Shown piece after piece: positions 17,876 through 33,022 of a DNA stretch of 64,000 nucleotides. The stretch's first letter is position 1. The number at the start of each line of letters is the position of its first letter. This stretch comes from an uncultured Gemmatimonadales bacterium (lineage in GTDB: Bacteria > Gemmatimonadota > Gemmatimonadetes > Longimicrobiales > Gaopeijiaceae), in the NCBI GenBank assembly GCA_963809895.1, contig CAWELD010000003.1, positions 2,432,001 to 2,496,000 on the forward strand, in the 5' to 3' direction. The notes under the pieces are model-generated. The model made no database searches and was not told the DNA's origin. It worked only from the letters and a program-made list of their open reading frames with translations. Made by a program: the position numbers and the translations under genes.

Positions 17876-18990
17876 GTCTGGATCCTGCCACCGGCGATGT
17901 GCCAGCGCGGCAGCACGTCTTTCCGTAGGCGCACGTCGCTCTCCTTGGGCGCCGTGAGGATGACCTGTCCGGTCTCCTCACGCTCGATCAGCGCCAGGAT
18001 GCGCTCCCCCCGCCCCTGGTCCAGCTCGGCGAAGACATCGTCCAGCAGCACCAATGGCTCCTGGCCCCGGGCCTCACGAATGGTGCGAGCTTCGGTGAGC
18101 CGGAGCGCCAGCGCCGCCGTGCGCCGCTGCCCGCCGGACCCGAACTCTCGAACCTCGAGATCCCGCTCCCCCTCCAACGAGATGGAGAGCTCGTCGCGGT
18201 GCGGGCCCACGACCGTGGTACCCAGGCGCCGCTCTCGCCCCGCCGAGTCGGCCAGCGCCTCGCCGAAGGCCGTGGCCATCCCCTCCAGCGTCGTCTCTCC
18301 GTCGAGACGCACGCTGGGCTTGTAGCTCTGCACGGCGCCCTGGCCCCCGGACACCTCCACGTAGAACGCCGTGAAGGCGTCCCCCCAACCCTCGATCCAG
18401 CGGGCCCGCTCGTACATGACGCGTGCACCGGCGCGGACCAGACCGTCGTCCCACAAGCCAACCATGTCAGCCGACTGATCCTCCTTCAGAGCCGCGTTCC
18501 GCTGCGACAGGATGTGCCTGTATTCCTGGAGCGCGCCCAGATAGCCCTCCGCATTGAGCGAGAGAACGATGTCGAGGAAGCGCCTCCGCTCCGCCGGTCC
18601 CTCGTTGATGAGCGACACGTCGGCAGGTGAGAACACGACCGCGGCCAATCGGCCCAGAGCGTCGGACAGGCGTTCGGGCTCGCGCCCCTCCACGGTGACC
18701 TTCTTCCGCCTTCCGCTGCGCTGGAAGGCCGCCGTCAGCGTGGGTCGGGGCGCGCACTCCTCGTCCTCCAGCCCGGCCACGATCCGAAACGCCTCTTCGC
18801 CGAAGGCCACGAGCTGATCGTCCCGCGCTCCGCGGAAGGACCGGAAGGTCTCGAGATAGTAGATGGCCTCGAGGAGATTGGTCTTCCCCTGGGCGTTCTC
18901 ACCCACCAGGGCCGCACCTTCGGGGGGTACGGTCACCTCCTGGACGCCCAGGTTGCGGAAGTGCCGGAGGGACAGCTGTCTCAGGCGCAC
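17872..18990 (-). CDS. recF: DNA replication/repair protein RecF
   Basis: FRNL, GENAQGKTNLLEAI, GPHRDEL, GSGGQRR, LLDDVFAELD; start moved to GTG at 18990. Confidence 0.96.
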   Translation of the reverse strand: MRLRQLSLRHFRNLGVQEVTVPPEGAALVGENAQGKTNLLEAIYYLETFRSFRGARDDQLVAFGEEAFRIVAGLEDEECAPRPTLTAAFQRSGRRKKVTVEGREPERLSDALGRLAAVVFSPADVSLINEGPAERRRFLDIVLSLNAEGYLGALQEYRHILSQRNAALKEDQSADMVGLWDDGLVRAGARVMYERARWIEGWGDAFTAFYVEVSGGQGAVQSYKPSVRLDGETTLEGMATAFGEALADSAGRERRLGTTVVGPHRDELSISLEGERDLEVREFGSGGQRRTAALALRLTEARTIREARGQEPLVLLDDVFAELDQGRGERILALIEREETGQVILTAPKESDVRLRKDVLPRWHIAGGRIQT

Positions 18991-19237
18991 GCGCGCGCGT
19001 CGGGAGGGACTCCAATGGGCATGGAGAAAACTACCACATCCGGAGGTCCGGGACCACCCCGGCCGAGGGGCTGAAATGCCAGACGCCGCAACGATTTCGG
19101 GGCCATCCATCGGCAGACGGCTCAGCCCGGACTGACACCTTCGGAGGCCCATCGGCGTATTCATACCCGGAGCCATGATCGCGCTGGCGGCCGGGGGGAG
19201 CATCCGGCCGGACCCGCGACTCCCAGGGAGACCCGGA

Positions 19238-19636
19238 ATGCCCCTCTCGAAGACCCTTCGCCTGGCTGCGGCGGTGTTGTTCGCCGCAAGTCTGCCCTCG
19301 TGCGCCACCACCGCCCGCTATCCCGGGGATCGGCAAGCCAACGCGGTCACCATCGTCGTCAACAACAAGAGCTCGACGCTGAGCTCCATGACCGTGCACC
19401 TGCTGACTCCCGATGGCGTGCGCCAGCGCCTGGGCACGGTGAACCTGAACGAGTCCCGCTCCTTCACGGTCCAACGCGCGTACATCAGCGGCACCTACCG
19501 CCTCATGGCCGAGCCCCTGGGTCAGCGCGACCTCTACTCCCACGAGTTCACGCTCTCGGAAGGCGACCTCGTGGAATGGAACCTGAAGCAGAACTACGTT
19601 CAGCTTCGCGGGACGACGCGCACCTACGAGGACTGA
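19238..19636 (+). CDS. Hypothetical lipoprotein (beta-rich)
   Basis: Signal peptide with LPSC lipobox; GC3-biased codons. Confidence 0.75.
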   Translation: MPLSKTLRLAAAVLFAASLPSCATTARYPGDRQANAVTIVVNNKSSTLSSMTVHLLTPDGVRQRLGTVNLNESRSFTVQRAYISGTYRLMAEPLGQRDLYSHEFTLSEGDLVEWNLKQNYVQLRGTTRTYED

Positions 19637-19665
19637 GGCCCGTCGACGCGGACCTCGACCAGGGG

Positions 19666-20451
19666 TCAGCCGCCGCCGAACTCCGGCTTCCGCTTCTCCA
19701 GGAACGCCGTCATCCCCTCCTTCATGTCGTCGGTGGAGGCGAGCAGGCCGAAGAGGGCGGACTCGAAGTCCAGCGCTTCGCGGGTCGAGCTGTCCATGGC
19801 GCGATAGATGGACTCCAGCGCCATGCGCACCGCCACCGGACCATTCTTGGTCACCCGGCGGAGGGACGCCTTGGCACGCTCCAGCAACTCGGCGCGGGGG
19901 ACCACCGCGGTGACGAGCCCCATGGCTTCGGCTCGCGCGGCGTCCACCATGTCGCCGGTGAGCGTCATCTCCACCGCGCGGCCCAGGCCCACGAGTCGGG
20001 CCAGGCGGATGGTCCCGCCGTAGCCGGGAATGATGCCCAGCCCGACCTCGGGGAGGCCGAAGCGGGCGTTCTCGCTGGCGATGCGCATGTGGCAGGCCAG
20101 CGCCAGCTCGCATCCGCCCCCCAGCGCGTAACCGCCCACCGCGGCCAGCACCGGCTTGGGAAAACGCTCGATGGCCAGGTACACCGCCTGGCCCGCGCGG
20201 CTGACGGAGACGCCGGACTGGGGCGTCATCACCGCCAGCTCGCCGATGTCCGCGCCCGCGACGAACGCCTTCTCGCCGGCGCCCGTGACGATGACGCCGC
20301 GCACGTCGTCGTCGCCGCGAAGCTCCTCGAACACCTGGCCGAGCTCGCCGATGACCTCGGCGTTCAGGGCGTTCATCTTCTCCTGCCGGTCCACGGTGAC
20401 GACGGCGAGGTCACCGTCCCAGTCCACCCGGATGTAGTTCAGATCGCTCAT
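19666..20451 (-). CDS. Enoyl-CoA hydratase/isomerase (crotonase)
   Basis: AFVAGADI, ALGGGCELALAC, FGLPEVGLGIIPGYGGT. Confidence 0.95.
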   Translation of the reverse strand: MSDLNYIRVDWDGDLAVVTVDRQEKMNALNAEVIGELGQVFEELRGDDDVRGVIVTGAGEKAFVAGADIGELAVMTPQSGVSVSRAGQAVYLAIERFPKPVLAAVGGYALGGGCELALACHMRIASENARFGLPEVGLGIIPGYGGTIRLARLVGLGRAVEMTLTGDMVDAARAEAMGLVTAVVPRAELLERAKASLRRVTKNGPVAVRMALESIYRAMDSSTREALDFESALFGLLASTDDMKEGMTAFLEKRKPEFGGG

Positions 20452-20615
20452 CGGATTCGGTCGATGGAAAGGCCACACGGAAGGGCCGGACGCGGGGTCG
20501 GACCCGGAGCGGGGAACGTAGAGGGTGGACGTCCCACACGGCAATGGAAAAAGCCGGTCCGACCCCTTACCTTTGGCGCCCGTGCATCCCTCGCAGAGCA
20601 AGGAGTCCCAGCGCA

Positions 20616-21086
20616 ATGAGCCGGTCCCTGAACAAGGTCACGCTCATCGGCAACGTCGGCAGCGACCCCGAGATCCGGGCCACGTCCGGAGGGTCCCGCG
20701 TCGCCAAGGTGTCCCTGGCCACCAACCGGAGCTTCCAGGACCGGACCGGCCAGCAGCAGGAGAAGACCGAGTGGCATCGCCTCACCTTCTTCGGTCGGCT
20801 CGCGGACATCGTCGAGCAGTACGTCAAGAAGGGCGACCGCCTCTACGTCGAGGGACGGATCGAGTACTCCCAGACGCAGGACGACTCCGGCAACACGCGC
20901 TACTGGACCGACATCGTCATCAACGAGATGATCATGCTCGGCTCCGGCGGCGGAGGCGACATGGGAGGCGGCGATCCGGGTGGCAGCTACGGTGGCGGCC
21001 GCTCGGGTGGATTCGGTGGGGGTGGCCAGGGCGGCGGACAGGGCGGCGGCTCGCTCTCCGAGCCGGACGACGACCTGCCCTTCTGA
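20616..21086 (+). CDS. ssb: Single-stranded DNA-binding protein
   Basis: SLNKVTLIGNVG, TEWHR, Gly-rich linker, C-terminal DDDLPF. Confidence 0.98.
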   Translation: MSRSLNKVTLIGNVGSDPEIRATSGGSRVAKVSLATNRSFQDRTGQQQEKTEWHRLTFFGRLADIVEQYVKKGDRLYVEGRIEYSQTQDDSGNTRYWTDIVINEMIMLGSGGGGDMGGGDPGGSYGGGRSGGFGGGGQGGGQGGGSLSEPDDDLPF

Positions 21087-21103
21087 GGCTCACTTCGAAG
21101 AAA

Positions 21104-21145
21104 CGAAACCCCGCCGCGTCCGAATCGTGACGCGGCGGGGTTTCG
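21104..21145. terminator. Bidirectional intrinsic terminator between ssb and the cytochrome c gene
   Basis: CGAAACCCCGCCGCGTC / GACGCGGCGGGGTTTCG perfect 17-bp stem. Confidence 0.85.
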
Positions 21146-21167
21146 CACACTGCGGGGTCGTGGCGGG

Positions 21168-22064
21168 TCAGCCCTCGCCCCCCGTGGGACGCGGGGGCAG
21201 CGAACGCAGGAAGAGCCACACCGCCTGGAGCTCGTCGTCTTCCATGGAACGCGTGGAGCGCCACGGCATGACGTCCGACAGCTGGGTGCCGTCGGGCCGG
21301 CGTCCTTCCGTGAGTGCACGCTTGAAGTCCTCGAAGGCCCAGTTCCCCAGCCCCTCGTCGGGATTGGGCGTGAGGTTGGCCGAGCGAGGTGCGCCCGGCT
21401 GAATCTCGACGCCCCCGTTGAGCTCCTCGCCGTGGCAACCGGCGCACAACGTGGCGAGGTAGGCCCCGTATTCGCGGGTGGCGCCTCGGGCGGGCGCTTC
21501 GACCGGCGATGCGTGGTGATCGATGCGGTTCGCCTCGACGAGTCCCCCGCTCGTGATGATCATGCGCGCCACCGGACCCAGGGTGCGTGGCCCGAGGTCG
21601 TGGTCGACGGGTGGCAGCGTCTGCAGGTAGGCTACGATGCGGCCCAGGTCACCGTCCCCGAGCCTGGCGTACTCCGACGAGGGCATGATGACGAGCAGTC
21701 GGCCGTCGTGCCCGATCCCGTGTCGTAGCGCCCGGAACCAGTCCTCCGGCGCGTTGGTGGCACCGACGCCGCCCTGCCCAGGCGTCAGGTTGGGTGCCAC
21801 GATGTGTCCCATGGGCGCCGCGTCGATCAGCACCTGGCCGCTCAGGTCCGGCCCATGACATTCGGTGCACCCGAACGCCACCGTCAGACGCTTGCCTTCG
21901 GCGAGGGATTCGGGGTCCGTGGGGATCGGCGGAACCCGCACCTCCACATCGAACGACTTCGACAGTTTGCGTGCGCTCAGCGCGTACACGCCCCCCACCG
22001 CCACCACCAACACGAGCACCAGCACACCCACGCCCACGACCAACCACTTCAGGACTCGCTTCAT
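21168..22064 (-). CDS. Membrane-anchored di-heme cytochrome c
   Basis: N-terminal TM; CTECH and CAGCH; NLTP motifs; MP axial Met. Confidence 0.93.
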   Translation of the reverse strand: MKRVLKWLVVGVGVLVLVLVVAVGGVYALSARKLSKSFDVEVRVPPIPTDPESLAEGKRLTVAFGCTECHGPDLSGQVLIDAAPMGHIVAPNLTPGQGGVGATNAPEDWFRALRHGIGHDGRLLVIMPSSEYARLGDGDLGRIVAYLQTLPPVDHDLGPRTLGPVARMIITSGGLVEANRIDHHASPVEAPARGATREYGAYLATLCAGCHGEELNGGVEIQPGAPRSANLTPNPDEGLGNWAFEDFKRALTEGRRPDGTQLSDVMPWRSTRSMEDDELQAVWLFLRSLPPRPTGGEG

Positions 22065-22068
22065 ACGC

Positions 22069-22416
22069 TCAACCTCCGGGATTGTCGACGTCCTCCTCCC
22101 ACAAGCCCATGAGATAGGTGTCGTAGAGATCGGGATGAGCCCGGTAGTCCTCGACCCACACCTCGAAGGGCGGAAGCACGACTCGCGCCGAGAGCCACTC
22201 CGTGGCCACCTGCATCATGCCCATGTATGAAACGTCGCCCACACCACCCCCTTCACGGGCGGCCTTCTGGGCAACGAGGTAGATTTCGTCCGGCGTGAGA
22301 TACAACAGCAGATCGGCGAGTTGGGCCGAACAGTAGTCCAGGTACTTCGCCCGGAGGATTCCCTCCGTCTCCTCACGACTCGGGTCGCGGGGCTTGGGCG
22401 GATCGGCGCCGTTCAC
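22069..22416 (-). CDS. Hypothetical protein consisting of novel domain A only
   Basis: LRAKYLDYCSAQ...LPPFEVWVEDY; paralogous to ORFs at 23230 and 25230; GTG start at 22416 inferred. Confidence 0.8.
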   Translation of the reverse strand: MNGADPPKPRDPSREETEGILRAKYLDYCSAQLADLLLYLTPDEIYLVAQKAAREGGGVGDVSYMGMMQVATEWLSARVVLPPFEVWVEDYRAHPDLYDTYLMGLWEEDVDNPGG

Positions 22417-22601
22417 GCGGTGCCCCCGGAAGCTCGATGGGTCAGTCCCGCCACAGGAGCCGACTGCGCGCATCCGCAATGCCGCACCCGGCCGAGAACC
22501 AACCTATGGATGTCGCGGGTCGCGCACCTGCGCAAGGGCGGACACGATCCCCGGGGGTTGCCCGGAGCCCTTCGCGGGTAGCGACTTGCGACGTTCGGGC
22601 T

Positions 22602-22805
22602 TCAGGTGGCCAGCGGCGACGCCGTGGCTTCGGAGCCGGTATCGTCACGCCGCTCGCGCAGGTGACGATAGATGGATCGGCGCGTGAGTCCGTACAGCAC
22701 CACCCGGCTCAGGAACTCCGGGTCGCTCTTCTGAACCTCTTCGGCCTCGGCCGCGATGTCTCGGGGCAGACGAACGTTCAGTTGCACGGAACAGGTCTCC
22801 CACAT
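22602..22805 (-). CDS. Small ribbon-helix-helix-like protein (67 aa)
   Basis: SVQLNVRLPRDIAAEAEEV has an RHH-like beta-strand+helix pattern; RBS GGAG upstream of ATG 22805. Confidence 0.65.
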   Translation of the reverse strand: MWETCSVQLNVRLPRDIAAEAEEVQKSDPEFLSRVVLYGLTRRSIYRHLRERRDDTGSEATASPLAT

Positions 22806-22987
22806 GCGCCGACTCCGAAAGGAATTGTTGAAAAGTTGATAACTGGCAGATGTCCCGCGCCGCCGCCGGATCCCGGCCCGGGCGGCACTCGCACAGCCCA
22901 CTCTGCTGGCTGCGGGAACGAAGAATAGGGCGCTTCTTTCCGGGGCGCAAGGCTCGTCCAGGCAACAAGGCTGAGCCGAATAGAATA

Positions 22988-23016
22988 CGTAAGTCCCTGT
23001 CCAGCAAACACTTACG
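22988..23016. promoter_or_regulatory. Perfect spaced palindrome CGTAAGT-N15-ACTTACG
   Basis: Read directly; lies in an AT-enriched 420-bp intergenic region. Confidence 0.65.
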
Positions 23017-23229
23017 ATTATGGCCGTTTCGCCGAATTCAAGCGTTCCCTCGGCTGCGCGAGAGCGCGATTTTTTGAACTTTTTTTGGAGGATGTGCTTT
23101 GATTCCGGGATGTTCCGAGATCAAGGCATCGAGAAATGACCCCGGATCCGTCGCGCGAATTTTGCAAATAATTGGAGCGCGCCGCGTAACCGCGGTCGAG
23201 CGCCGATCGGCGCCGGGCGAGGCGCGGAC

Positions 23230-23838
23230 CTACGGCAGCGCCGAGCGGAGGAAGGCGCGCAGCGTGGCTTCATCGAAGCTGCGGAAACGCTCGCGGACCG
23301 GGGTCAGATGCTCTTCCCGGAAGATGTCGGCGGTGCGCACGGAGTCGCGCTCGGGCGGGCGATGGAACTGGATGGCGCCGCGCCATCCCTCCTCCACCGG
23401 ATGGACGCACAGGGCGGCGACCCATTCCGCCGACGCCACGACGAAGGTCCGCACGTCCACGGTGACGGGCTCACCACCCGGTACCGCGGGCCCTTCGGCC
23501 AGCGGCGGCTCCACATCCACCAGATAGGCGCCCCGATTGAGGTGGAAGTCCTCGAGCCACGCTCCGAAGGGGGGCAGCGGCAGAAGCTCGGCGCAGTGGG
23601 CGGCGAGCTGTTCAAGCGTCGGCTCTCCCCGCACGGCCTCCCCCTGTCCGGCCCGGAACTGGCGCACCAGGGCGCGCACGCCCTCCCTGGGCACAATGGC
23701 GAGCAGGTCCCGTCCCTGGCGTTGGCGATACGCCTCGTAGCGCGCGCGCAGGGCTTCTGTGGCCGGGTGACTCTCCGCGGGTCCCTGTCGGGGGATGTGG
23801 GCGTACCGGGCTCCACCGGCGCCGAGCTCGGTGGCCAT
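23230..23838 (-). CDS. Hypothetical protein, novel domains A-B
   Basis: LRARYEAYRQRQ...LPLPPFGAWLEDF, then WRGAIQF...VRTADIF...LRAFLRSAL; 1-nt TGATG overlap with the upstream ORF. Confidence 0.82.
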   Translation of the reverse strand: MATELGAGGARYAHIPRQGPAESHPATEALRARYEAYRQRQGRDLLAIVPREGVRALVRQFRAGQGEAVRGEPTLEQLAAHCAELLPLPPFGAWLEDFHLNRGAYLVDVEPPLAEGPAVPGGEPVTVDVRTFVVASAEWVAALCVHPVEEGWRGAIQFHRPPERDSVRTADIFREEHLTPVRERFRSFDEATLRAFLRSALP

Positions 23839-24725
23839 CAGTGCACCGTCCCCATCTCGGACACCACGGGAGCCACGCGCACGGTCCTGGCGGCCGGAAG
23901 TCGGTCCCTGAGGCGGGCCAGCGTCTCTCGCTTGCCGAAGGTTGCGACCACACCGTCCACGGCCTGGAAGCGTTCCGGCTCGAAGCGCGCCAGCAGGCCC
24001 GCCAGCCCCGCGCGCACCCGTCCCAACTCCTCACGCAGCTCCTCCATGGTGAGGGGCAGCGGGAACCGGACCTGGTACCCGCCGGCGGCCGCCGGCGACG
24101 CCGGCACCAGCCGACGAAGGTCGGTGCCCGGGAACACCTCGCTCAGGGCATCCTCCAGCGTGTGATCCGGCGCGGCCGTGGGTGTGCGGAGGAGGAGGGC
24201 GTTGTCGTCGTAGTCCAGGTGGGCCCTCACCAGGCGCCCGGGGGCGACCGAGATACGGACTGCCGTGCCGTCGTTCAGGTCGAGATCGCGACACACGTCC
24301 CGGAATCCCAGGCGGAGCAGCGAGGGGCGGGTGAGCGGACCGAAGCCCACGCGCTCCAGGACCGAGAGTGCCAGACGAAAGCAGAAGCGCGACAGGTCGC
24401 CCCGATCCCGGCCGCTGGCGGCGGCGCGCACCAGCTCGGCCACGTGCTCGAGCGTCGGCTCGTACACCCAGTCGAGCACCACGAGCTCGCCACTCAGGTC
24501 CAGGAGCTTCACGTCGGCGCTGCCGAGGTCCACCACTTCGGCCGACGAGGCGTAACGGCCCTCGAGGACCAATGCCACACCGATGTCCTGGATGCGGCCC
24601 CCGGGCACGTCCACTTCGTGCACGTCGCGGTACTGGACCACGGCGCGGGTCAGCGGCAACTCGCAGACGCCGGGCACGTCGGCCATGGCTTCCGGTCGAC
24701 TGTCGAGGTTGAGGCTCGTGTGCAT
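23838..24725 (-). CDS. Hypothetical protein (295 aa)
   Basis: Normal codon bias, protein-like composition, translationally coupled to the downstream gene. Confidence 0.8.
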   Translation of the reverse strand: MHTSLNLDSRPEAMADVPGVCELPLTRAVVQYRDVHEVDVPGGRIQDIGVALVLEGRYASSAEVVDLGSADVKLLDLSGELVVLDWVYEPTLEHVAELVRAAASGRDRGDLSRFCFRLALSVLERVGFGPLTRPSLLRLGFRDVCRDLDLNDGTAVRISVAPGRLVRAHLDYDDNALLLRTPTAAPDHTLEDALSEVFPGTDLRRLVPASPAAAGGYQVRFPLPLTMEELREELGRVRAGLAGLLARFEPERFQAVDGVVATFGKRETLARLRDRLPAARTVRVAPVVSEMGTVH

Positions 24726-24803
24726 GTCGTATTCCCCGTGGATTCGCGCGTGCGCGTCACGGGGAGAGCATGCGTCAGGATCGTCGGAGGGTACACGCCG
24801 ACC

Positions 24804-24833
24804 TTGACACCCGCTCGACGAGCCTTGTATCCT
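24804..24833 (+). promoter_or_regulatory. Sigma70-like promoter
   Basis: TTGACA (24804-09), 18-nt spacer, TATCCT (24828-33). Confidence 0.65.
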
Positions 24834-24838
24834 CTTCG

Positions 24839-24919
24839 ATAGTCAATCGAATGGAAACGGGCTCGCCAGCCCGTGCCGCGCGGGAGTTCCGGTGCCAGCC
24901 GGAGCTCCCGCGTTTTTTT
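24839..24919 (+). ncRNA. Candidate ~80-nt small RNA or attenuated leader
   Basis: Promoter directly upstream; hairpin ACGGGCT-CGCC-AGCCCGT; 14-bp terminator stem + T7; no credible ORF ends here. Confidence 0.55.
24879..24919 (+). terminator. Rho-independent terminator
   Basis: CGCGGGAGTTCCGG-TGCCAG-CCGGAGCTCCCGCG-TTTTTTT; the G-U wobble works only on the + strand. Confidence 0.85.
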
Positions 24920-25229
24920 CAGGGGTGGCGACGCCGAGGCACCACCACGCTTTTCTTGTAATTTTCTCCCGCCCCACGAAGGGGCGACGCAGGCCCGGCA
25001 GACGCGGTGCCACCCGCATCGTCCGGGCCTGATGCGACGGGTCGTCTACCCCGTCTGCGCTACGATAACCAACTGTTTACGACCCCCGCAAGAAGATTCG
25101 CTGCAGCGGGCCCGGAACCGCGCATTCCCACGTCCGCGGCGATGCCAATCGCCAGGGTCGGGATCTCCCGGCGGGGACCCGCCAGCCTCCAGGTTGCCAC
25201 CGCCGCAGAAGCCGATCACCTTGCCGGAT

Positions 25230-25940
25230 ATGGTCACGCCCACCCCCGATCGCTCCGCGCCACCGGTGCCGGAGCACCGCATCCGCCGCCGCTCCGTCGG
25301 CTTCCTGGATCGCGAGGGCCAACGATGGGCCTGCTTCCTGGTGAGCTATCCCGATGGCGACGGCGCCTGGCGGGGGCATTTCGCGTTCCGCCCGTCCGGC
25401 GGGCACGGCGACGGCCATCAGGTGCGTACCACCGACATCTTCGTCGAGCCGTCCGAGGCGGAGATCCAGGTGAAGGCGCGCGGACTGGGGCGCCCCCTGC
25501 TTCGTGCCCTGCTGGACTCGGCCCTGCACGTGCGTTCGCGGGCCGACGACGACTCCCCGTTCCTCCGCCGCTGGTTCCGGGAGCTTCTGGCGGAACACTC
25601 TCGCATGCCCGACGGACCGGCCGAAGGCGGCGTGGGCGAAGCGTCCGATCTCGACGAGTTGAGATCGCTGTACGCGTCGTATCGGCTCGACCAGGTCGCG
25701 CACTTCATCGCCCTGGTGCGTCCCGAGGAGTTCGAAGGCGCGGTCGCGCACGTGCTCGAAGGCGAGCGTATCGACTTCGCCGCCCGCGATCGGCTCCAGC
25801 TCGCCATGCTGGTGGTGGAGTTCATCGAGGAGCGGCTCCCGCTCCCGCCCTTCGAGGTCTGGGTGCGCGACTATCTCGAGCACGCGGAGCGCTACCACAT
25901 CTACGCGCACACGCTGCACCGCGAAGGGCGGCTGCCCTGA
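25230..25940 (+). CDS. Hypothetical protein, novel domains B-A
   Basis: WRGHFAF...VRTTDIF...LRALLDSAL, then LRSLYASYRLDQ...LPLPPFEVWVRDY; start ATG 25230 inferred. Confidence 0.82.
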   Translation: MVTPTPDRSAPPVPEHRIRRRSVGFLDREGQRWACFLVSYPDGDGAWRGHFAFRPSGGHGDGHQVRTTDIFVEPSEAEIQVKARGLGRPLLRALLDSALHVRSRADDDSPFLRRWFRELLAEHSRMPDGPAEGGVGEASDLDELRSLYASYRLDQVAHFIALVRPEEFEGAVAHVLEGERIDFAARDRLQLAMLVVEFIEERLPLPPFEVWVRDYLEHAERYHIYAHTLHREGRLP

Positions 25941-25968
25941 GCGACGGCCACCGCCCCCACGCCGAGCC

Positions 25969-27534
25969 TCAGCTCACGAGGTAGCCCGCCGCCAGGGCAC
26001 GGAACTCCTCCACCTGGGCCGACTCCCAGTCGGCGTCGCGGCCCAGCTCCCCTGCCATGAGCTCGGCAGCGACGGGCGCGGCCTCCATGGCGGCCCGCGC
26101 GTCGAGAAGCAGCGAACGGGTGCGCCGTGACAGGACGTCGTCCAGCGTGCGTGCCATCTCGTGACGCGCCGCCCACACGACCTCGGCACGCAGCGCGGGC
26201 AACCGCGGATGCAACACGTCGCCCAGTCCCTCCTGAGACATGGCCAGACGGCGCACCTCGGGCGCGTCCGACCCGTGCACGGCCAACGCGCCGTCCGAGG
26301 GCTCCTCAGGCCAGTGGCCATGGATCGGCAGGTCCTTGGTCGGACACGGCACGGGCTCCAGGCCCGCCAGCGTCGCCGCGTGATCCACGGTGTCCTCGGC
26401 CATGCGCCGATAGGTGGTCCACTTGCCTCCGGTGATGGTCACGAGTCCCGACGACGAGATCTGCAGGGTGTGATCACGGGACAGGGCAGCGGTGTCGTCG
26501 CCCTCACCTCCGGCGGCCACCAGTGGGCGCAGCCCGGCGAAGGCGCACAGCACCTCGGCGGGGTCCGGGTCCCGGGTCAGGTAGCGGGCGGCGTGCCGGA
26601 GCACGAAGGCCACCTCTTCGTCCAGGGGACGGGGTTCCAGCGAAACGTCGTCCATCGGCGTGTCGGTGGTCCCCACCAGCACGCGGTCGTGCCAGGGCAC
26701 CGCGAACAGCACCCGGCCGTCGTCGGTCCTGGGCACCATGATGGCCGAATCGCCGGGCAGGAACGTCCGGTCCAGCACCAGGTGGATACCTTGGCTCGGG
26801 CGGATCATGGAGGACGCGTCGGGATCGTCCATGCGCCGAATCGAGTCGGCGAACACGCCGGTGGCGTTCACGACCACGCGAGCCTCCACCTCGAGCTCCG
26901 CCCCTCGCTCCAGGTCTGTGGCGCGCACACCGGTGACGAATCCGTCGGCGTCCCGGAGAAGGGCGTCCACGCGGGCGTAGTTCACCAGCGTCCCGCCGTG
27001 TTCGGCAGCGGTGCGCGCGAGGTGGATCAGCAGGCGGGCATCGTCGAATTGGCCGTCGTGGTAGACGACGCCGCCGCGGAGCCCGTCAGGCTCGATGGTG
27101 GGAAGCCGCTCCAGTGTCTCCTCGCGCGACAGCAGGCGCGATGGCCCGAAGCCGTACTTGCCGGCCAGGGCATCGTAGACCTTGAGCCCGATGCCGTAGA
27201 ACGGCGCCTCCCACCAGTCGTAGTTGGGCACCACGAAGGCCAGGTCGTGGACGAGGTGCGGAGCATTGCCCCGCAGGATCCCGCGCTCCCTGAGCGCCTC
27301 CATGACCAGGGGGATGTTGCCCTGCCGAAGGTATCGGACGCCACCATGCACAAGCTTGGTGCTTCGCGACGACGTGCCCTTGCCGAAATCGCTCGCCTCC
27401 AGGAGGACCACGTCGTAGCCCCGGGCCGCGGCGTCCACCGCCACGCCGACGCCGGTGGCTCCCCCGCCGATGACTGCCACGTCCCACGGCTCCGTTCTCC
27501 GCTCCAGGCGTTGCAGCATCTCGTCACGATTCAT
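25969..27534 (-). CDS. glpD: FAD-dependent glycerol-3-phosphate dehydrogenase/oxidase
   Basis: IGGGATG, GTSSRSTKLVHGGVRYL, DGQFDDARL, GGKWTTYRRMAE. Confidence 0.96.
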   Translation of the reverse strand: MNRDEMLQRLERRTEPWDVAVIGGGATGVGVAVDAAARGYDVVLLEASDFGKGTSSRSTKLVHGGVRYLRQGNIPLVMEALRERGILRGNAPHLVHDLAFVVPNYDWWEAPFYGIGLKVYDALAGKYGFGPSRLLSREETLERLPTIEPDGLRGGVVYHDGQFDDARLLIHLARTAAEHGGTLVNYARVDALLRDADGFVTGVRATDLERGAELEVEARVVVNATGVFADSIRRMDDPDASSMIRPSQGIHLVLDRTFLPGDSAIMVPRTDDGRVLFAVPWHDRVLVGTTDTPMDDVSLEPRPLDEEVAFVLRHAARYLTRDPDPAEVLCAFAGLRPLVAAGGEGDDTAALSRDHTLQISSSGLVTITGGKWTTYRRMAEDTVDHAATLAGLEPVPCPTKDLPIHGHWPEEPSDGALAVHGSDAPEVRRLAMSQEGLGDVLHPRLPALRAEVVWAARHEMARTLDDVLSRRTRSLLLDARAAMEAAPVAAELMAGELGRDADWESAQVEEFRALAAGYLVS

Positions 27535-27669
27535 GGGCTCTCGTCCGGGGATTCGGGGTGCGGCACGCGGCCTCCACGGGGGTCATGGTACGGTGTCGCG
27601 GCCCGTCGCGTCACCCCGCGGTGCGTGTTATGCTTTTCGGCTCGCTCGCGTCCTTCGGCCGGCTGTATC

Positions 27670-28473
27670 GTGAACCCTACGCTCCTCGCCCTCGTCAGCG
27701 TCGCCCTGGTCAGCCTGCTGTCGCTGGCCGGGCTCCTGACGCTCTCGCGCAACACCGAGGTCCTGCAGCACCGCCTCCCGCTCCTGGTGAGCCTGGCGGC
27801 GGGGGTGCTCGTGGGGAGCGCGGTCCTGCACCTCCTCCCCGAGGGCATGGAAGCGCTGGGGCCGGGCCTGCGGCTGCCCCTGCTGTTCCTGGTCGGGTTC
27901 CTCGGGTTCTTCGTCCTCGAGCGCTACCTGTGGTTCCATCACCACGGCCCCGACGTCGGTCCGGCGGACCCCCGGGGCGAAGGCCACCGCTCGGGTCACG
28001 GGCTGGAGGAGAACTGTCCGGATCCCCACCCGGTCGTGGTGATGAACCTGGTGGGCGACGGGGTGCACAACCTCATCGACGGGATGGCCATCGGTGCCGC
28101 GTACCTGGTGGACCCCGCCGCGGGATTCGCGACGACCTTGGCCATCGTCCTGCACGAGATCCCCCAGGAGATCGGAGATTTCGCGGTTCTGGTCCACGGC
28201 GGCCTCTCCGTCCGGCGCGCCCTGGTGCTCAACTTCCTGTCGGCGCTGGCCGCGGTGGTGGGCACGGTGGCGGCCCTCCTGGTGGGGGGCTCCGTCAGCG
28301 GCTTCTCCGCCATGTTGTTGCCCGTGACAGCAGGGAGCTTCCTTTACATCGCCGCCGCCGACCTGATCCCCGAGATCCACCGCCACGGGGACCGGAGCCG
28401 GGCTGCCGCCCAGAGCTTCTTCCTCTTCCTCGGGGTCGCCGTCACCCTGGTGCTCAAGGTGACTCTGCCGTGA
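27670..28473 (+). CDS. ZIP family zinc/metal transporter
   Basis: HLLPE, His-rich loop, GDGVHNLIDG, LHEIPQEIGDF, DLIPE. Confidence 0.95.
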   Translation: MNPTLLALVSVALVSLLSLAGLLTLSRNTEVLQHRLPLLVSLAAGVLVGSAVLHLLPEGMEALGPGLRLPLLFLVGFLGFFVLERYLWFHHHGPDVGPADPRGEGHRSGHGLEENCPDPHPVVVMNLVGDGVHNLIDGMAIGAAYLVDPAAGFATTLAIVLHEIPQEIGDFAVLVHGGLSVRRALVLNFLSALAAVVGTVAALLVGGSVSGFSAMLLPVTAGSFLYIAAADLIPEIHRHGDRSRAAAQSFFLFLGVAVTLVLKVTLP

Positions 28474-28519
28474 TCCGCACGGGCGCGGTCCCGACCCCAT
28501 GCCCCGCGCTCCTTCCAGG

Positions 28520-28549
28520 TTGACTGGTCGCCCCCGCGAGGGCTAGCTT
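28520..28549 (+). promoter_or_regulatory. Sigma70-like promoter of rpsU
   Basis: TTGACT-N18-TAGCTT. Confidence 0.55.
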
Positions 28550-28596
28550 TCAGAGCTTTGTCGCTTTAGTTGGTTCAACCGAGGAGAGTGATTCTC

Positions 28597-28794
28597 TTGG
28601 AAGTCACCATCCAGGATAACGAGAGTCTCGAGCGGGCCCTCCGCCGTTTCAAGCGGAAGGTTCAGCGCTCCGGCCTCTACTCCGAGCTTCGCAAGCGGCG
28701 CTATTACGAGAAGCCCAGCGCGCAGCGGAAGCGGAAGAGAGAAGCGGCCATCCGGCGCGAGCGTCGGCGTCAGCGGCGAAACACCCGGCGCTGA
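28597..28794 (+). CDS. rpsU: 30S ribosomal protein S21
   Basis: [24 protein letters not shown] start after GAGGAG. Confidence 0.97.
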
Positions 28795-28827
28795 CCGACG
28801 GTCCGGGACACTCGTCCTCGGACGGAA

Positions 28828-28862
28828 GAAAGGAGCCCTTCCCAGCGGGAGGGGCTCTTTTC
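28828..28862. terminator. Bidirectional terminator after rpsU
   Basis: GAAAGGAGCCCTTCCC-AGC-GGGAGGGGCTCTTTTC. Confidence 0.85.
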
Positions 28863-28865
28863 GTT

Positions 28866-29657
28866 TCAGGCGGAGCGCCGCCGGAGGAACAGGCTGTCGA
28901 GGGAATCCCAGGCCTCCAGGGCCTCGGGCGCGCACAGCTCCGATACGAAGCGGATCAGGAGCCGTTCCCATCCCCCGGGCATGCGGAGCTCGGTGGGGGT
29001 GGAGCCGATCGTGGAGCTCAGATACCGACACAGGTTCGCGCTGGTCACCCACCCCAGCCGCTGGGCGGCGCGCAAGGTGGTGAAGCCACGCCCGCGGAGC
29101 ACGTGAGCCACGCTCAGGGCCCGGAACCAGCGCAGGTAGGAAAAGGGGGATTCCAGGGAACGGCGACGGAAGCGGGCCTTCAGGGCTCCCGCCGACAGTC
29201 CCGTGAGGCGTTCCAGTGCGCCCAGATCACCGTATCGATGGGGTAGCGCCATGGCACGGCGCCCCAGCCCGCGCAGCGCCGACGGCAGGGGGCGCCCGGC
29301 GATGCGATCCAGATCCCGCAGCGCCGTGTCGAGCCAGAGGCGCCCACCCTGCTGCCGAAGCCCGGGCTGGAGCCGGGTCGCCAGATAGGCCGGCCAGGAC
29401 CGGGGCAGGCCGTCCGTCTTCCAGCCGTCCCTCCAGATCGCGGACTCACGCTCCGAGATCGTCAGGATGGGCACCGACCGCCCGCTCCCGTCCTGTACCG
29501 CCCTGCGAACTTTCTCCGTGGTCACCGCCACCCGCGGGAACCCGAGGTGCAACGCGAGCTCGACCTCGTCGGCGTCCGCCAGAACGTCCTCTTCGGGCGA
29601 AGCCGCCAGGCGCACAGCGGCTCGCAGGCCGGGATCGGAACGAAGAATGACGATCAT
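28866..29657 (-). CDS. AraC-like helix-turn-helix regulator
   Basis: LERLTGLSAGALKARF...SPFSYLRWFR...AAQRLGW.TSANLCRYL...GSTPTELR resembles the two AraC HTH motifs. Confidence 0.72.
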   Translation of the reverse strand: MIVILRSDPGLRAAVRLAASPEEDVLADADEVELALHLGFPRVAVTTEKVRRAVQDGSGRSVPILTISERESAIWRDGWKTDGLPRSWPAYLATRLQPGLRQQGGRLWLDTALRDLDRIAGRPLPSALRGLGRRAMALPHRYGDLGALERLTGLSAGALKARFRRRSLESPFSYLRWFRALSVAHVLRGRGFTTLRAAQRLGWVTSANLCRYLSSTIGSTPTELRMPGGWERLLIRFVSELCAPEALEAWDSLDSLFLRRRSA

Positions 29658-29660
29658 GCT

Positions 29661-29969
29661 CTAGTAGGTCGCTGAAGAAGGGGAGCACCCCGCGTTGGGA
29701 GCGCCACGGCCCCTCAACCTAGGCGAAGCGACGAAGGCATAGCCATAGCTACGTCGAGGAGCTTCAACGACGGAGGAGGGGCCGTGCCGCCCCAACCCAC
29801 TGCCGTCCAAGTTCATAGGCCACATACGGATGGGCGCATGGCGGTTCCGCGGTTGATCCATCGTCTCTCCTCCTCGCCGTAGCGCTGCTACGACTCGTCG
29901 TCGCTCCTTGCCTGAACGCGCGAAAGCGCCATGCGCGCGGGGTACTCCCCTTCTTCAGCGACCTGCTAG
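29661..29969. mobile_element. 309-bp element with 34-bp terminal inverted repeats (MITE-like or invertible segment)
   Basis: 29661-29694 is the reverse complement of 29936-29969 at 32/34 nt; CTAG at both ends; no transposase. Confidence 0.75.
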
Positions 29970-30018
29970 TATTGCGACTCGGGCACCGTTCCGGCCAGGG
30001 GTTGTGGACGGATCGGGC

Positions 30019-30915
30019 TCAGACCGGAAGGGGAACGGGCTCGTCGCCGGACCAGTCGTAGAACCCCTCGCCGCTCTTCCGCCCGTACCTTCCCAACGCC
30101 ACCATGCGTCGCAGGAGCGGCGGCGGTGCGTAGCGGGGCTCCCGGTACTCGTCGAACATGATCTCCGAGATACGCAGGAGCGTGTCCACGCCCACGAAAT
30201 CACACAGCCGGAAGGGCCCCATGGGGTGTCCGCAGCCCAACACCATGGCCTTGTCGATGTCCTCCAACGTGCCGACGCCCCGCTCGAGTTGGCGGATGGC
30301 GTCGAGCATGTACGGCACCAGGAGGAGGTTCACCAGAAAGCCCGACCGGTCCTGCGCCATCACGGGCTCCTTGCCCAGCGAGCGGGCGAACGCCAGCACC
30401 CCGCCGAGGGTCGCCTCGGAGGTGGCGATGGTTCGCACCACCTCCACCAGCGTCATCACCGGCACCGGGTTGAAGAAGTGGAGCCCGACGAAGCGATCGG
30501 GCCGCGAGGTGCGGGCCGCCATGTCGGTGATGGGGAGGGAACTGGTGTTGGACGCGAACACCGTGTGCTCTCCGCAGACACCGTCCAGCGTGCCGAACAC
30601 CTGGTGCTTGACCTCCGGATCCTCCACCACCGCCTCGATCACCAGGTCGCAGTCCGCGAGCTCCGGCAGCTCGGTGGTGAAGCTCATGCGGCCCAGAGCC
30701 GCATCCCGGTCATCGCGCGTCAGCTTCTCCCGCTCCACGCCTCGCGCGAGCGACGCCTCGACACGGGCACGTCCCGACGCCAACGAGCCATCGTCGACCT
30801 CTCTCACCCGCACCGGATACCCGGCACGGGCGATGACCTCGGCGATCCCGCTCCCCATGAGCCCACACCCCACGACGCCCACCTTGTCGATCTTCATGCT
30901 CGACTCCGTCGTCAC
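30019..30915 (-). CDS. 3-hydroxybutyryl/3-hydroxyacyl-CoA dehydrogenase
   Basis: VVGCGLMGSGIA, IEAVVE, SNTSS, GLHFFNPVP, HPMGP. Confidence 0.95.
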   Translation of the reverse strand: MTTESSMKIDKVGVVGCGLMGSGIAEVIARAGYPVRVREVDDGSLASGRARVEASLARGVEREKLTRDDRDAALGRMSFTTELPELADCDLVIEAVVEDPEVKHQVFGTLDGVCGEHTVFASNTSSLPITDMAARTSRPDRFVGLHFFNPVPVMTLVEVVRTIATSEATLGGVLAFARSLGKEPVMAQDRSGFLVNLLLVPYMLDAIRQLERGVGTLEDIDKAMVLGCGHPMGPFRLCDFVGVDTLLRISEIMFDEYREPRYAPPPLLRRMVALGRYGRKSGEGFYDWSGDEPVPLPV

Positions 30916-31802
30916 CGTGAGCCTCCGGCAGGCCGGGGGCCCTCATCGTCGTCGTCCAGGTTGAGAAGCAGCCGGCGCGCACCGTGGAACTGGCGCTCGG
31001 CCCAGCGGCGCCAGGAGGCAGGGGGAGGCTCCAGAACCTCGCCGGTCTCCAGCCGGTCCAGCACGCCCTCGACCTCGGCGTGCACGTCCAGGAACTTGCG
31101 GCGGTGCCCCCGGCCTGCCAGGCGCACCGCCAGCCAGCCGACCAATCCCGCCACGACCCCTCCCGAGGCGACACCCAGCGCCACGGGAGCGACCATGGAT
31201 ACGAGGAACCCCACCCCCACCCCACCGGCCGCTGCCGCCAGCCCTCCGCCGAAGGCCATGCCCCCCACGTAGTCGCCCCGGATGCCCGGGTCCACGACGA
31301 ACTCCACCATGGTGCGGCCCGGATCCACCGGCTCCAGCGTCACCTCCACCGAGCGGGCGGAGGCCACGAAGTACTTCTTGGAGGTCGCGCTGGCCGCCCG
31401 TGCCAGCTGCGAGATCCAGTCCACCGCCGGCCGGTACTGCAGGAAGGTGGGAGATCGGCGCACCCGCTGCAGGAGTCGCCCCGCCACCATGAAGTCGTCC
31501 AGCTGAGCGGACAGCTCGTCGGTGGTCCCGTCGACGACGCGGGAGGCGTGCACCAGCTCGGGCCCCAGGAGCCGATCGAGAATCTTGCCGTCGGGGGCCG
31601 CGCCGGCGCGCACCTCGGCCAGGGCCTGTCTCACGTAGCGCTCGGGGAGGCCGACCTCACGGGCGATCCGGTAGACCTCCCCCTCACCGAGATCCCCCTC
31701 TCCCTGCTCCGCCTCGCGCGCGGCCAGCTCGGAGGCACGACGGATCACCTCGTCGAACTGTGTGCGGGTCAGGCTACTCCCCGGTTGCCGTTCGTTGGTC
31801 AC
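30912..31802 (-). CDS. Hypothetical membrane protein
   Basis: N-terminal VIRRASEL...IAREVGLP helical unit; two Gly/Ala-rich TM helices; GTGA overlap with the downstream gene. Confidence 0.82.
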   Translation of the reverse strand: MTNERQPGSSLTRTQFDEVIRRASELAAREAEQGEGDLGEGEVYRIAREVGLPERYVRQALAEVRAGAAPDGKILDRLLGPELVHASRVVDGTTDELSAQLDDFMVAGRLLQRVRRSPTFLQYRPAVDWISQLARAASATSKKYFVASARSVEVTLEPVDPGRTMVEFVVDPGIRGDYVGGMAFGGGLAAAAGGVGVGFLVSMVAPVALGVASGGVVAGLVGWLAVRLAGRGHRRKFLDVHAEVEGVLDRLETGEVLEPPPASWRRWAERQFHGARRLLLNLDDDDEGPRPAGGSR

Positions 31803-31816
31803 GGGTCAAACACCTC

Positions 31817-33022
31817 TCAGAGGACCTCCACCACCACGGCGCCGCCCTGGCCCCCGCCGATGCACGCCGAGCCGACGGCGTAGCGACCACCCCGGCGGCG
31901 CAGCTCGTGCAGCAGGTGCACGGTGATGCGCGCACCCGACGCCGCCAGAGGATGCGTGAGGGCGATGGCGCCGCCGTCCACGTTGGTCTTCTCGGGATCC
32001 AGCCCGAGCTCCTTCTCCACCGCCACGTACTGGGGCGCGAAGGCCTCGTTCACCTCCACCAGGTCCATGTCGTCGAGCTCGAGTCCGGCGATGTCGAGCG
32101 CCTGCCGAATGGCGGGCGCGGGTCCGATGCCCATGATGCGGGGATCCACCCCGACGAAGGCCCACGAGACGAGGCGCCCCAGGGGCGTGAGCCCGTGCTC
32201 CTCCGCCCAGGCGGCGTCGGCCAGCACCGCGCTGGCGGACCCGTCGCCGATGCCGCTGGCGTTGCCCGCGGTGACCAGGCCGTCTTCGCGAAAATACGGG
32301 CGCAGCCCGGCCAGTGTTTCCGGCGTGGTGTCGGGCCGCATGTGCTCGTCGCGGGCGTAGGTGGCCGGACCCTTGCGCGTCTTCACGGTCACGGGAACGA
32401 TCTCCTGGTCGAAGCGCCCTTCCTCCCAGGCTCGCCTGGCCCGCTGCTGGGAACGGTAGGCCACCTCGTCGGCCTCGGCCCGGGTCACGCCGTAGCGCTC
32501 GGCGAGCTCCTCGGCGGTCTGGGCCATGGTGAGGCCGCACTGCGAGTCCAACAGCGCCTGCCACAACAGGTCCTCGAAATACGGCCCGGCCTCGCCCAGC
32601 CTGAGCTCGCCCCAACGAGCCCCCCGCACCACGTGCGGCGCCTGGCTCATGGATTCGGTGCCGCCGGTGAGCACGCAGCGGGCACCATCCAGGAGGATCT
32701 CCTTGGCGCCCTGCACGATGGCCTCGAAGCCGGACCCGCACAGCCGATTGACGGTCAGCGCAGGCCGTTCCTGCGGCACGCCACAGCGGAGCGCCACGTG
32801 GCGAGCGAGGTAGATGGCGTCGGACGAGGTCTGGAGCGCGTTGCCGAAGAAGGTGTGATCCACCTGCTCGGGCCCGACGCCGGCGGCCTCCAGCGCCCCT
32901 TCGCTGCTGATCACGCCCAGATCCGTGGCCGACAATCCCTTGAGCGACCCGCCGAAGCTCCCGAAGCCCGTGCGCTTCCCCGACAGGAACACGATGTCCC
33001 GACTCTGACCCTGCGTCGCCAT
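31817..33022 (-). CDS. Acetyl-CoA C-acyltransferase (thiolase)
   Basis: VNRLCGSG, TAGNASG, NEAFA, GAIALTHPLAASG, CIGGGQG. Confidence 0.96.
   Translation of the reverse strand: MATQGQSRDIVFLSGKRTGFGSFGGSLKGLSATDLGVISSEGALEAAGVGPEQVDHTFFGNALQTSSDAIYLARHVALRCGVPQERPALTVNRLCGSGFEAIVQGAKEILLDGARCVLTGGTESMSQAPHVVRGARWGELRLGEAGPYFEDLLWQALLDSQCGLTMAQTAEELAERYGVTRAEADEVAYRSQQRARRAWEEGRFDQEIVPVTVKTRKGPATYARDEHMRPDTTPETLAGLRPYFREDGLVTAGNASGIGDGSASAVLADAAWAEEHGLTPLGRLVSWAFVGVDPRIMGIGPAPAIRQALDIAGLELDDMDLVEVNEAFAPQYVAVEKELGLDPEKTNVDGGAIALTHPLAASGARITVHLLHELRRRGGRYAVGSACIGGGQGGAVVVEVL

Follow-up and report, generated by a model that had tools for sequence, protein, structure and literature searches.

What is the task of a unit of promoter, hairpins and terminator that lies between two genes and ends neither of them? 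This question is raised by positions 24804-24919 of the window, the whole 64,000-nt stretch of DNA analysed here. As had been predicted, no gene ends at the element: the gene on its left (23838-24725) is encoded on the minus strand, and the next plus-strand gene begins at 25230. The original prediction proposed a self-contained RNA gene whose product would act in trans or govern read-through into the downstream gene. The evidence assembled below points to the operon on the left.

On the plus strand, the -35 hexamer TTGACA (24804-24809) is separated by an 18-nt spacer from the -10 hexamer TATCCT (24828-24833), as originally described. It was the only promoter-like site within positions 18000-32000 (14 kb), where 0.7 such sites are expected by chance, and a lone sigma-70-type site is therefore little proof by itself. 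As the putative sigma-70-type promoter of a small RNA (24804-24833), its -35 columns are conserved at 0.89-1.0 in 55 copies. From a start at 24840, deduced from the promoter motif, an RNA of about 80 nt (24840-24919) would comprise a 5' tail starting with a GNCA motif, hairpin H1, a linker, hairpin H2 and a U tract; three GNCA motifs occur per RNA. The predicted 7-bp hairpin was found as H1 (24857-24874; 24857-24863 paired with 24868-24874), with 88% of aligned cells paired. Its loop has the family consensus YCGCCAR, and CCA is present in 44 of 55 copies. The terminator hairpin H2 (24879-24919) was likewise as foreseen, with a 14-bp stem (24879-24892 with 24899-24912), T7 at 24913-24919 and one U-G pair (24887-24904) that assigns it to the plus strand. 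Family-wide, G-U outnumbers A-C in H2 by 47 to 8, which favours the same strand, and at least five U within 8 nt follow H2 in 50/55 copies. The H2 loop is UGCCAG, and its CCA is kept in 54/55 copies. An 83-nt fold had -48.3 kcal/mol (z -6.45), and 0 of 200 shuffles were equally stable.

The 5' stretch, thought to be A-rich and unstructured, is unpaired in the short RNA, but 24846-24851 complements 24835-24840 in a covarying helix. Its conservation (0.56) is barely above that of the promoter spacer (0.52). Immediately 5' of the -35, a GGGCRYAC...CC motif at 24789-24803 is conserved and may form a small hairpin or bind a protein; 34 anchored copies showed no conserved -35 ahead of this motif, of the kind that would make it an alternative-sigma promoter. 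One metatranscriptome contig covers 24676-24920, has its end at the U tract and carries the family-consensus base at 24843; it is weak evidence, being unstranded, of low depth (6) and from a single study, it may be DNA, and it stops short of 25055. Only one RNA run was available (share 0.11), and stretches without coverage there prove nothing.

Relatives of the locus were collected by tracing the 295-aa gene (23838-24725), which was present in 25 of 41 genomes; the same element occupied the same position in five other genomes. With a covariance model built from 9 copies, promoter and hairpins, whose conservation in relatives had been set beforehand as the check on the prediction, were recovered in 40/151 genomes of the host family. 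A second model was used for the sister family (Longimicrobiales), in which 11/73 genomes held 2-3 tandem copies and 10 further genomes gave only weak, unrelated-looking matches. In a phylum sample of 151 genomes, strong matches and the 295-aa gene were restricted to the host's own order; annotations of homologous proteins assign the host to Longimicrobiales, Gemmatimonadota. Kin genomes are not independent in any of these counts. Synteny was strict: 36 of 37 new model loci lay directly upstream of the 295-aa gene, and the sole exception, devoid of the loops, was dropped. In an alignment of 56 rows fitted to the covariance model, which still includes L097 (removed from all 55-copy counts), 94.6% of cells pair compared with at most 57.7% in slid controls, and 12/12 pairs of the H2 terminator change on both sides. 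Across the family, loop letters are fixed while stems vary, and covariation, suggested at the outset as a check, was strong in the stems. Conservation, covariation and strand bias support the self-contained gene of about 80 nt, and the element, with its promoter, two hairpins and intrinsic terminator, is real.

The small RNA was found only at this locus in the genomes searched: blastn, pattern and model searches revealed no paralogue in its own genome, no match was obtained among plasmids, and all 19 congeners of the host lack the element. Off-locus model matches that scored below about 37 bits (L042, L043, L048, L049, L054, L055, L097-L102 and L119-L127, with L100-L102 and L125 uninspected) were judged to be other terminators or leaders. 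Among these, L048, L119, L121 and L122, from the sister family, are promoter-hairpin-terminator units without CCA loops and possible further small RNAs or attenuators; in L119 a hairpin arm also begins right after the -10, and L048 precedes a short ORF. At L042:1460-1660 a leader peptide rich in aromatic codons and an attenuator lie upstream of a gene that we take to resemble DAHP synthase. Within the window, no Rfam family reached its gathering score; BjrC68 (RF02353), at 24.8 bits against a gathering threshold of 39, was seen in this genome only (one of ten loci scanned) and was rejected. In the openly searchable literature no earlier description was found, and motif lists in supplements could contain one. 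The RNA family is new for the phylum and is not a member of the known antisense families. In a quick tree of 71 proteins, presence and absence need 6 changes, of which 4 are forced; inheritance with repeated loss fits this tree without being proved by it, and the small RNA is apparently vertically inherited.

The 295-aa gene would be the first of the proposed target operon. Its stop overlaps the start of the 202-aa gene (23230-23838), the adjacency on which operon status is based, and the same-strand run (22069-23838) includes, downstream of the 202-aa gene, a small gene of the same cluster ending at 22602 and a 136-aa gene (22069-22479), all on the minus strand. To the right, the 236-aa gene (25230-25940, plus strand) has its own promoter at 25194-25222, a motif found in 33/37 loci and in 0 on the other strand; judged from its sequence, this gene is independent of the small RNA. 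Its -10 lies 7 nt before the ATG, which suggests a leaderless mRNA in this genome. The 136-aa, 202-aa and 236-aa genes (within 22069-25940) share two domains of no known family, in swapped order, and rpsU follows the cluster in many relatives.

For the 295-aa protein, Pfam, NCBIfam and PADLOC gave no match, which does not exclude a family. Neither PDB-sequence and atlas matches nor clear fold matches were obtained for the cluster proteins, and the 236-aa protein had no fold match. The 295-aa model (pLDDT 88) had only weak fold matches. Its N-domain aligned with MazF (Z 6.4, rmsd 2.9, 80 aligned) and Kid (Z 6.0), tied with unrelated rows including KOW and OapB; the Pfam PemK model matched none of 136 members. 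No function is claimed for this protein because MazF and KOW/OapB align equally and no row reaches Z 8.

On the minus strand to the right of the RNA gene lies a promoter of the leftward operon (25062-25091; -35 at 25091-25086, -10 at 25067-25062), which points through the small RNA gene. Its motif is found right of the RNA in 54/55 copies, with the same pattern on the other strand in 1/55, and in 10/10 held-out copies. Minus-strand promoters in this place score 12.8-19.8 bits in 39/40 loci; between the 295-aa start codon and the terminator, none above 8.1 bits was found in 40/40 loci. The motif is 224-630 nt distant from the start codon where the RNA is present (39 loci); without the RNA the distance is 6-141 nt (22 of 28 loci). 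The promoter patterns behind these counts were written after the data had been seen, and all transcript starts are motif-based. Since the promoter is to the right of the RNA, the operon leader would read through the RNA gene antisense and hold its full complement. This putative leader of the 295-aa gene measures about 330 nt (24726-25055, minus strand). The promoters of small RNA and operon are convergent and 230 nt apart, and about 115 nt separate the small RNA from the 295-aa start codon. No leader peptide or small toxin ORF conserved in position and sequence was found opposite the RNA in 39 loci. In most family members, whether or not they carry the RNA, the spacer of the leftward promoter (25068-25085) retains a core resembling GTAAACA; this core is a candidate operator, perhaps for the protein of the small gene ending at 22602.

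Three helices, H0, P2 and P1, each draw on sequence 5' of the small RNA start, and the short RNA forms none of them. H0 (24835-24851) pairs 24835-24840, in the -10/discriminator region, with 24846-24851 in the 5' tail; because its arms straddle the RNA start, only an RNA that extends across the promoter could form it. Cognate arms paired better than non-cognate arms (p<=5e-5; 55 copies, 36 after dereplication, which was done at 80% for all helix covariation tests), the control was not significant, and held-out copies gave p 0.003; against shuffles the signal was weak (z -1.05 vs -0.69 for the control). P2 (24817-24867) joins the promoter spacer (24817-24824) to the 5' arm and loop of H1 (24860-24867) and is an alternative to H1. 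Its cognate pairing was equally significant (p<=5e-5, control not significant) and repeated in held-out copies; in those of the sister family its plus-strand form was the stronger one (-14.8 vs -11.8). Plus-strand U-G pairs are common in P2. Wobble and energy tests against nulls did not fix the strand of H0, P2 or a small upstream hairpin, and a wobble count of 24 vs 9 failed against a composition null.

P1 (within 24754-24879, minus strand) pairs the linker (24870-24879) with 24754-24763, the 5' arm of H(-1), a hairpin close to the gene, and is proposed to be an anti-terminator or anti-sequestrator. Its covariation had p<=5e-5 (34 loci; 23 dereplicated), and a coding-region control was not significant. 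Lineage-specific matches of 10-11 nt join linker and leader arm; an exact inverted match of at least 7 nt was present in 14/40 loci, compared with 3.4% of shuffles. The arm motif occurred in 18/40 loci with the RNA and in 0/28 without it; it was absent from 22/40 loci and from the tandem arrays. In co-transcriptional snapshots ending just past the arm, P1 formed with P>0.5 in 18/23 loci, compared with 2/23 for the full-length equilibrium fold; this test is partly circular because its 23 loci were chosen for having the arm motif. When the antisense region was blocked at equilibrium, pairing of H(-1) rose by more than 0.1 in 4/23 loci. H(-1) itself (24733-24765, minus strand; 24758-24765 with 24733-24740) buries the 295-aa gene's ribosome-binding site, which is 90-100% paired in the full-length leader fold of this genome. 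The minus strand gives the better fold of H(-1) (13 vs 5, p 0.003), and in other genomes this hairpin is terminator-like: a tract of at least five U followed it in 7/20 loci by an automated test. An earlier U-tract measure was dropped as confounded, the fold having swallowed the tract. Read on the minus strand, the H2 loop is YUNR in 44/55 copies and the H1 loop in 30/55; on the plus strand the figures are 0/55 and 2/55.

An opposite-strand transcript thus appears to cross the element, and cis-antisense control of the left-hand operon, overlooked in the original prediction, is therefore proposed. The minus-strand YUNR loops, a likeness to the loop TTGGCG and the pT181-like anti-terminator pattern are the reasons for proposing a kinetic switch. 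On this comparative analysis we consider it fairly probable that the RNA is a chromosomal cis-antisense regulator which switches the leftward operon off, like pT181 or CopA/Inc. Conservation, covariation, synteny and promoter geometry support the proposal; expression, binding and direction of effect are predicted. The conserved promoter motifs suggest that transcription of the operon is driven from 25091-25062 and crosses the RNA gene on the opposite strand. As long as no antisense RNA is present, the nascent leader would, to judge from covariation and folding, form H0 and P2 and so free the strand for P1. P1 would engage H(-1) at its 5' arm and delay this terminating or ribosome-site-burying structure, and the gene would be on. 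When the small RNA is present, its CCA loops and 5' end would, by analogy, meet the UGG-containing YUNR loops of the leader; the duplex would remove the P1 strand and allow the proximal hairpin to form, stopping transcription in some genomes and translation in this one. Interference between the convergent promoters probably adds to the antisense effect.

The rival that survives best, unlikely as we judge it, makes the RNA a protein ligand or sponge, whose repeated GCCA loops would titrate an RNA-binding protein that is perhaps encoded in the cluster and also binds a similar leader motif. Sponges of the CsrB/RsmY type are independently transcribed RNAs with a repeated loop motif, GGA, on short hairpins. 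The three GNCA motifs, the fixed loops on covarying stems and the tandem copies, each with a promoter, would suit such a role, as would the weak likeness of the 295-aa N-domain to SH3-like barrels, among them the RNA-binding chains of KOW and OapB (Z 5.8). However, GCCA-loop hairpins are not in excess genome-wide (7 seen vs 10.4 expected), the element was found nowhere off this locus in the genomes searched, and a sponge leaves the helices across the start site and the 10-11 nt linker-leader matches unexplained. Searches of the host genome (one genome, 95% complete) found no Hfq, ProQ, CsrA (PF02599) or RRM; these results, together with the lack of a GCCA-loop excess, lowered both the sponge and the chaperone-dependent readings. 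Membership of the CsrB/RsmY/RsmZ sponges was rejected, since the loops here are CCA and not GGA and CsrA was not found. Two pairs of identical hairpins, the members of a pair about 200 nt apart, with CGCCAG or CTGGCG loops (G000 C3:613198 and 613394; C10:354592 and 354796) are probably within-gene repeats.

It is improbable that the functional molecule is a longer plus-strand RNA, starting upstream of 24804 at an undetected promoter, which would fold H0 and P2 into a rod bearing three loops of the GCCA type and of which the sigma-70 promoter would yield a shorter isoform. The plus-strand fold of P2 is equal or better, a 120-nt plus-strand form folds at -62.9 kcal/mol, the sole contig covers 24676-24920, and the GGGCRYAC motif immediately 5' of the -35 is conserved. 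Nevertheless, an upstream plus-strand promoter scored above 10 bits in only 3/40 loci, the anchored copies lack a conserved -35 ahead of the motif, and H(-1), like its U tract, is oriented to the minus strand.

Quite improbable is transcriptional interference alone, in which a strong plus-strand promoter and terminator would reduce the activity of the convergent operon promoter, any RNA-RNA pairing being incidental. The spacing of the convergent promoters would permit it, and the available text of PMC2879508 documents interference for RnaG/icsA; it requires, however, neither fixed loop letters such as the CCA of H2 nor covarying leader helices.

An attenuator or riboswitch governing read-through into the 236-aa gene, as first envisaged, is largely refuted and seems very improbable: the terminator does lie upstream of that gene in 37/40 single-copy loci, but no covarying antiterminator was found (cognate arms no better, p 0.42-0.99; positive control p<=5e-5), the gene has its own promoter, its distance from the RNA varies from 183 to 501 nt in single-copy loci, and other genes follow the RNA in two array genomes. 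The other original suggestion, a trans-acting sRNA base-pairing with distant mRNA targets through a 5' seed, has hardly any probability left: an independent promoter and terminator and conserved loops that could serve as seeds would suit it, but it is weakly opposed by a 5' tail conserved at no more than spacer level, by the failure to find Hfq or ProQ, for which an Hfq/ProQ-dependent sRNA with a conserved single-stranded 5' seed was rejected, and by the loss of the RNA along with the long leader in several lineages. A type I toxin-antitoxin system was likewise rejected, no conserved small toxin or leader ORF having been found opposite the RNA in the 39 loci; nor is the RNA an indispensable antitoxin of the kind expected beside a type III or MazF/PemK-type toxin, because the 295-aa gene persists without it in 28 loci.

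In the sister family, arrays of three distinct paralogues, each with promoter and terminator, occupy L032:402-1047, L033:4420-5012 and L051:1110-1734, and the paralogue types are orthologous between genomes. Two genomes keep a tandem array without the 295-aa gene beside it. Extra GCCAG-loop hairpins follow the last array copy, just before the minus-strand promoter. Within 60 nt upstream of array promoters (L033, L050, L051), up to 11 nt of a copy's H1 loop and arm recur on the same strand; such repeats of at least 7 nt occur in 5/15 array copies, in arrays without the P1 arm, and may give the leader a second target site.

Beyond the cis-antisense switch at this locus, a broader reading is offered tentatively and is itself rather doubtful: an old, vertically inherited chromosomal form of kissing-loop control, in which one sensing module works with interchangeable outputs (termination in some genera and burial of the ribosome site in others). 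In the sister family it would have multiplied within one leader into two or three tandem antisense genes that share the loop motif, differ in their stems and act as natural stacked gates. Such control would hold tightly off an orphan operon whose first protein, on this reading, carries a barrel like that of MazF. By analogy with T-boxes, UGG loops of the leader could also read uncharged tRNA ends. In the accessible parts of PMC3753616 and PMC4878617, antisense switches that combine kissing loops with an anti-terminator come mostly from plasmids; synthetic biology values them as parts because orthogonal variants are hard to make. If the reading is true, this family on the chromosome, which counts at least 65 natural variants with covariation, offers alternative outputs and forms tandem arrays, would be a ready parts library, and kissing-loop antisense control would be shown to be vertically inheritable. 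The phylum, of which the sampled genome shows no Hfq, ProQ or CsrA, also gains a new RNA family, and the orphan operon is flagged as needing tight control.

Among known systems, the cis-antisense switch proposed here is most readily compared with pT181 and pIP501, in which, as far as the available sections of PMC4878617 and PMC4485353 describe them, an antisense RNA opposite a 5' leader acts through its loops on a switch between anti-terminator and terminator. In pT181 the anti-terminator sequesters the 5' arm of the terminator unless the antisense RNA binds, and the difference between snapshot and equilibrium folds of P1 (18/23 vs 2/23) corresponds to the kinetic pattern given there (PMC4878617, in part). 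In contrast to both plasmid systems, the present locus is chromosomal, on a 3.68-Mb contig beside gyrB and recF; its target would be an orphan operon and not a replication initiator, Rfam similarity is lacking, and the output appears to alternate across genomes between termination and burial of the ribosome site.

CopA/CopT of plasmid R1 and the I-complex Inc/RNAI resemble the RNA in being short, ending in a terminator hairpin and using a loop as recognition site. Loop-loop chimeras of plasmid regulators share the loop TTGGCG (PMC3753616, available part), and the complement of many H1/H2 loops is identical to it or 1-2 positions off. Unlike CopA/Inc, the locus has no conserved leader peptide that could be found and no Rfam or plasmid sequence match. 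Two features of the plasmid kissing regulators recur here: an own promoter and terminator opposite the target leader, with starts taken from motifs, and YUNR recognition loops, on the minus strand; YUNR loops are described as general in loop-loop antisense pairing in the portion of PMC4485353 at hand.

RnaG/icsA of Shigella flexneri shares the convergent promoters and an RNA antisense to the leader that acts by attenuation and interference; in the same partly available source (PMC2879508) RnaG is 450 nt long and lies on the virulence plasmid, whereas the RNA described here is about 80 nt, chromosomal and kept in two families. MtlS/mtlA of Vibrio cholerae is, in the accessible text of PMC6597380, a chromosomal cis-antisense sRNA to a 5' UTR that represses translation. 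MtlS is described there as occluding the ribosome site directly, whereas the present RNA, some 115 nt away from the start codon, would act via a conformational switch.
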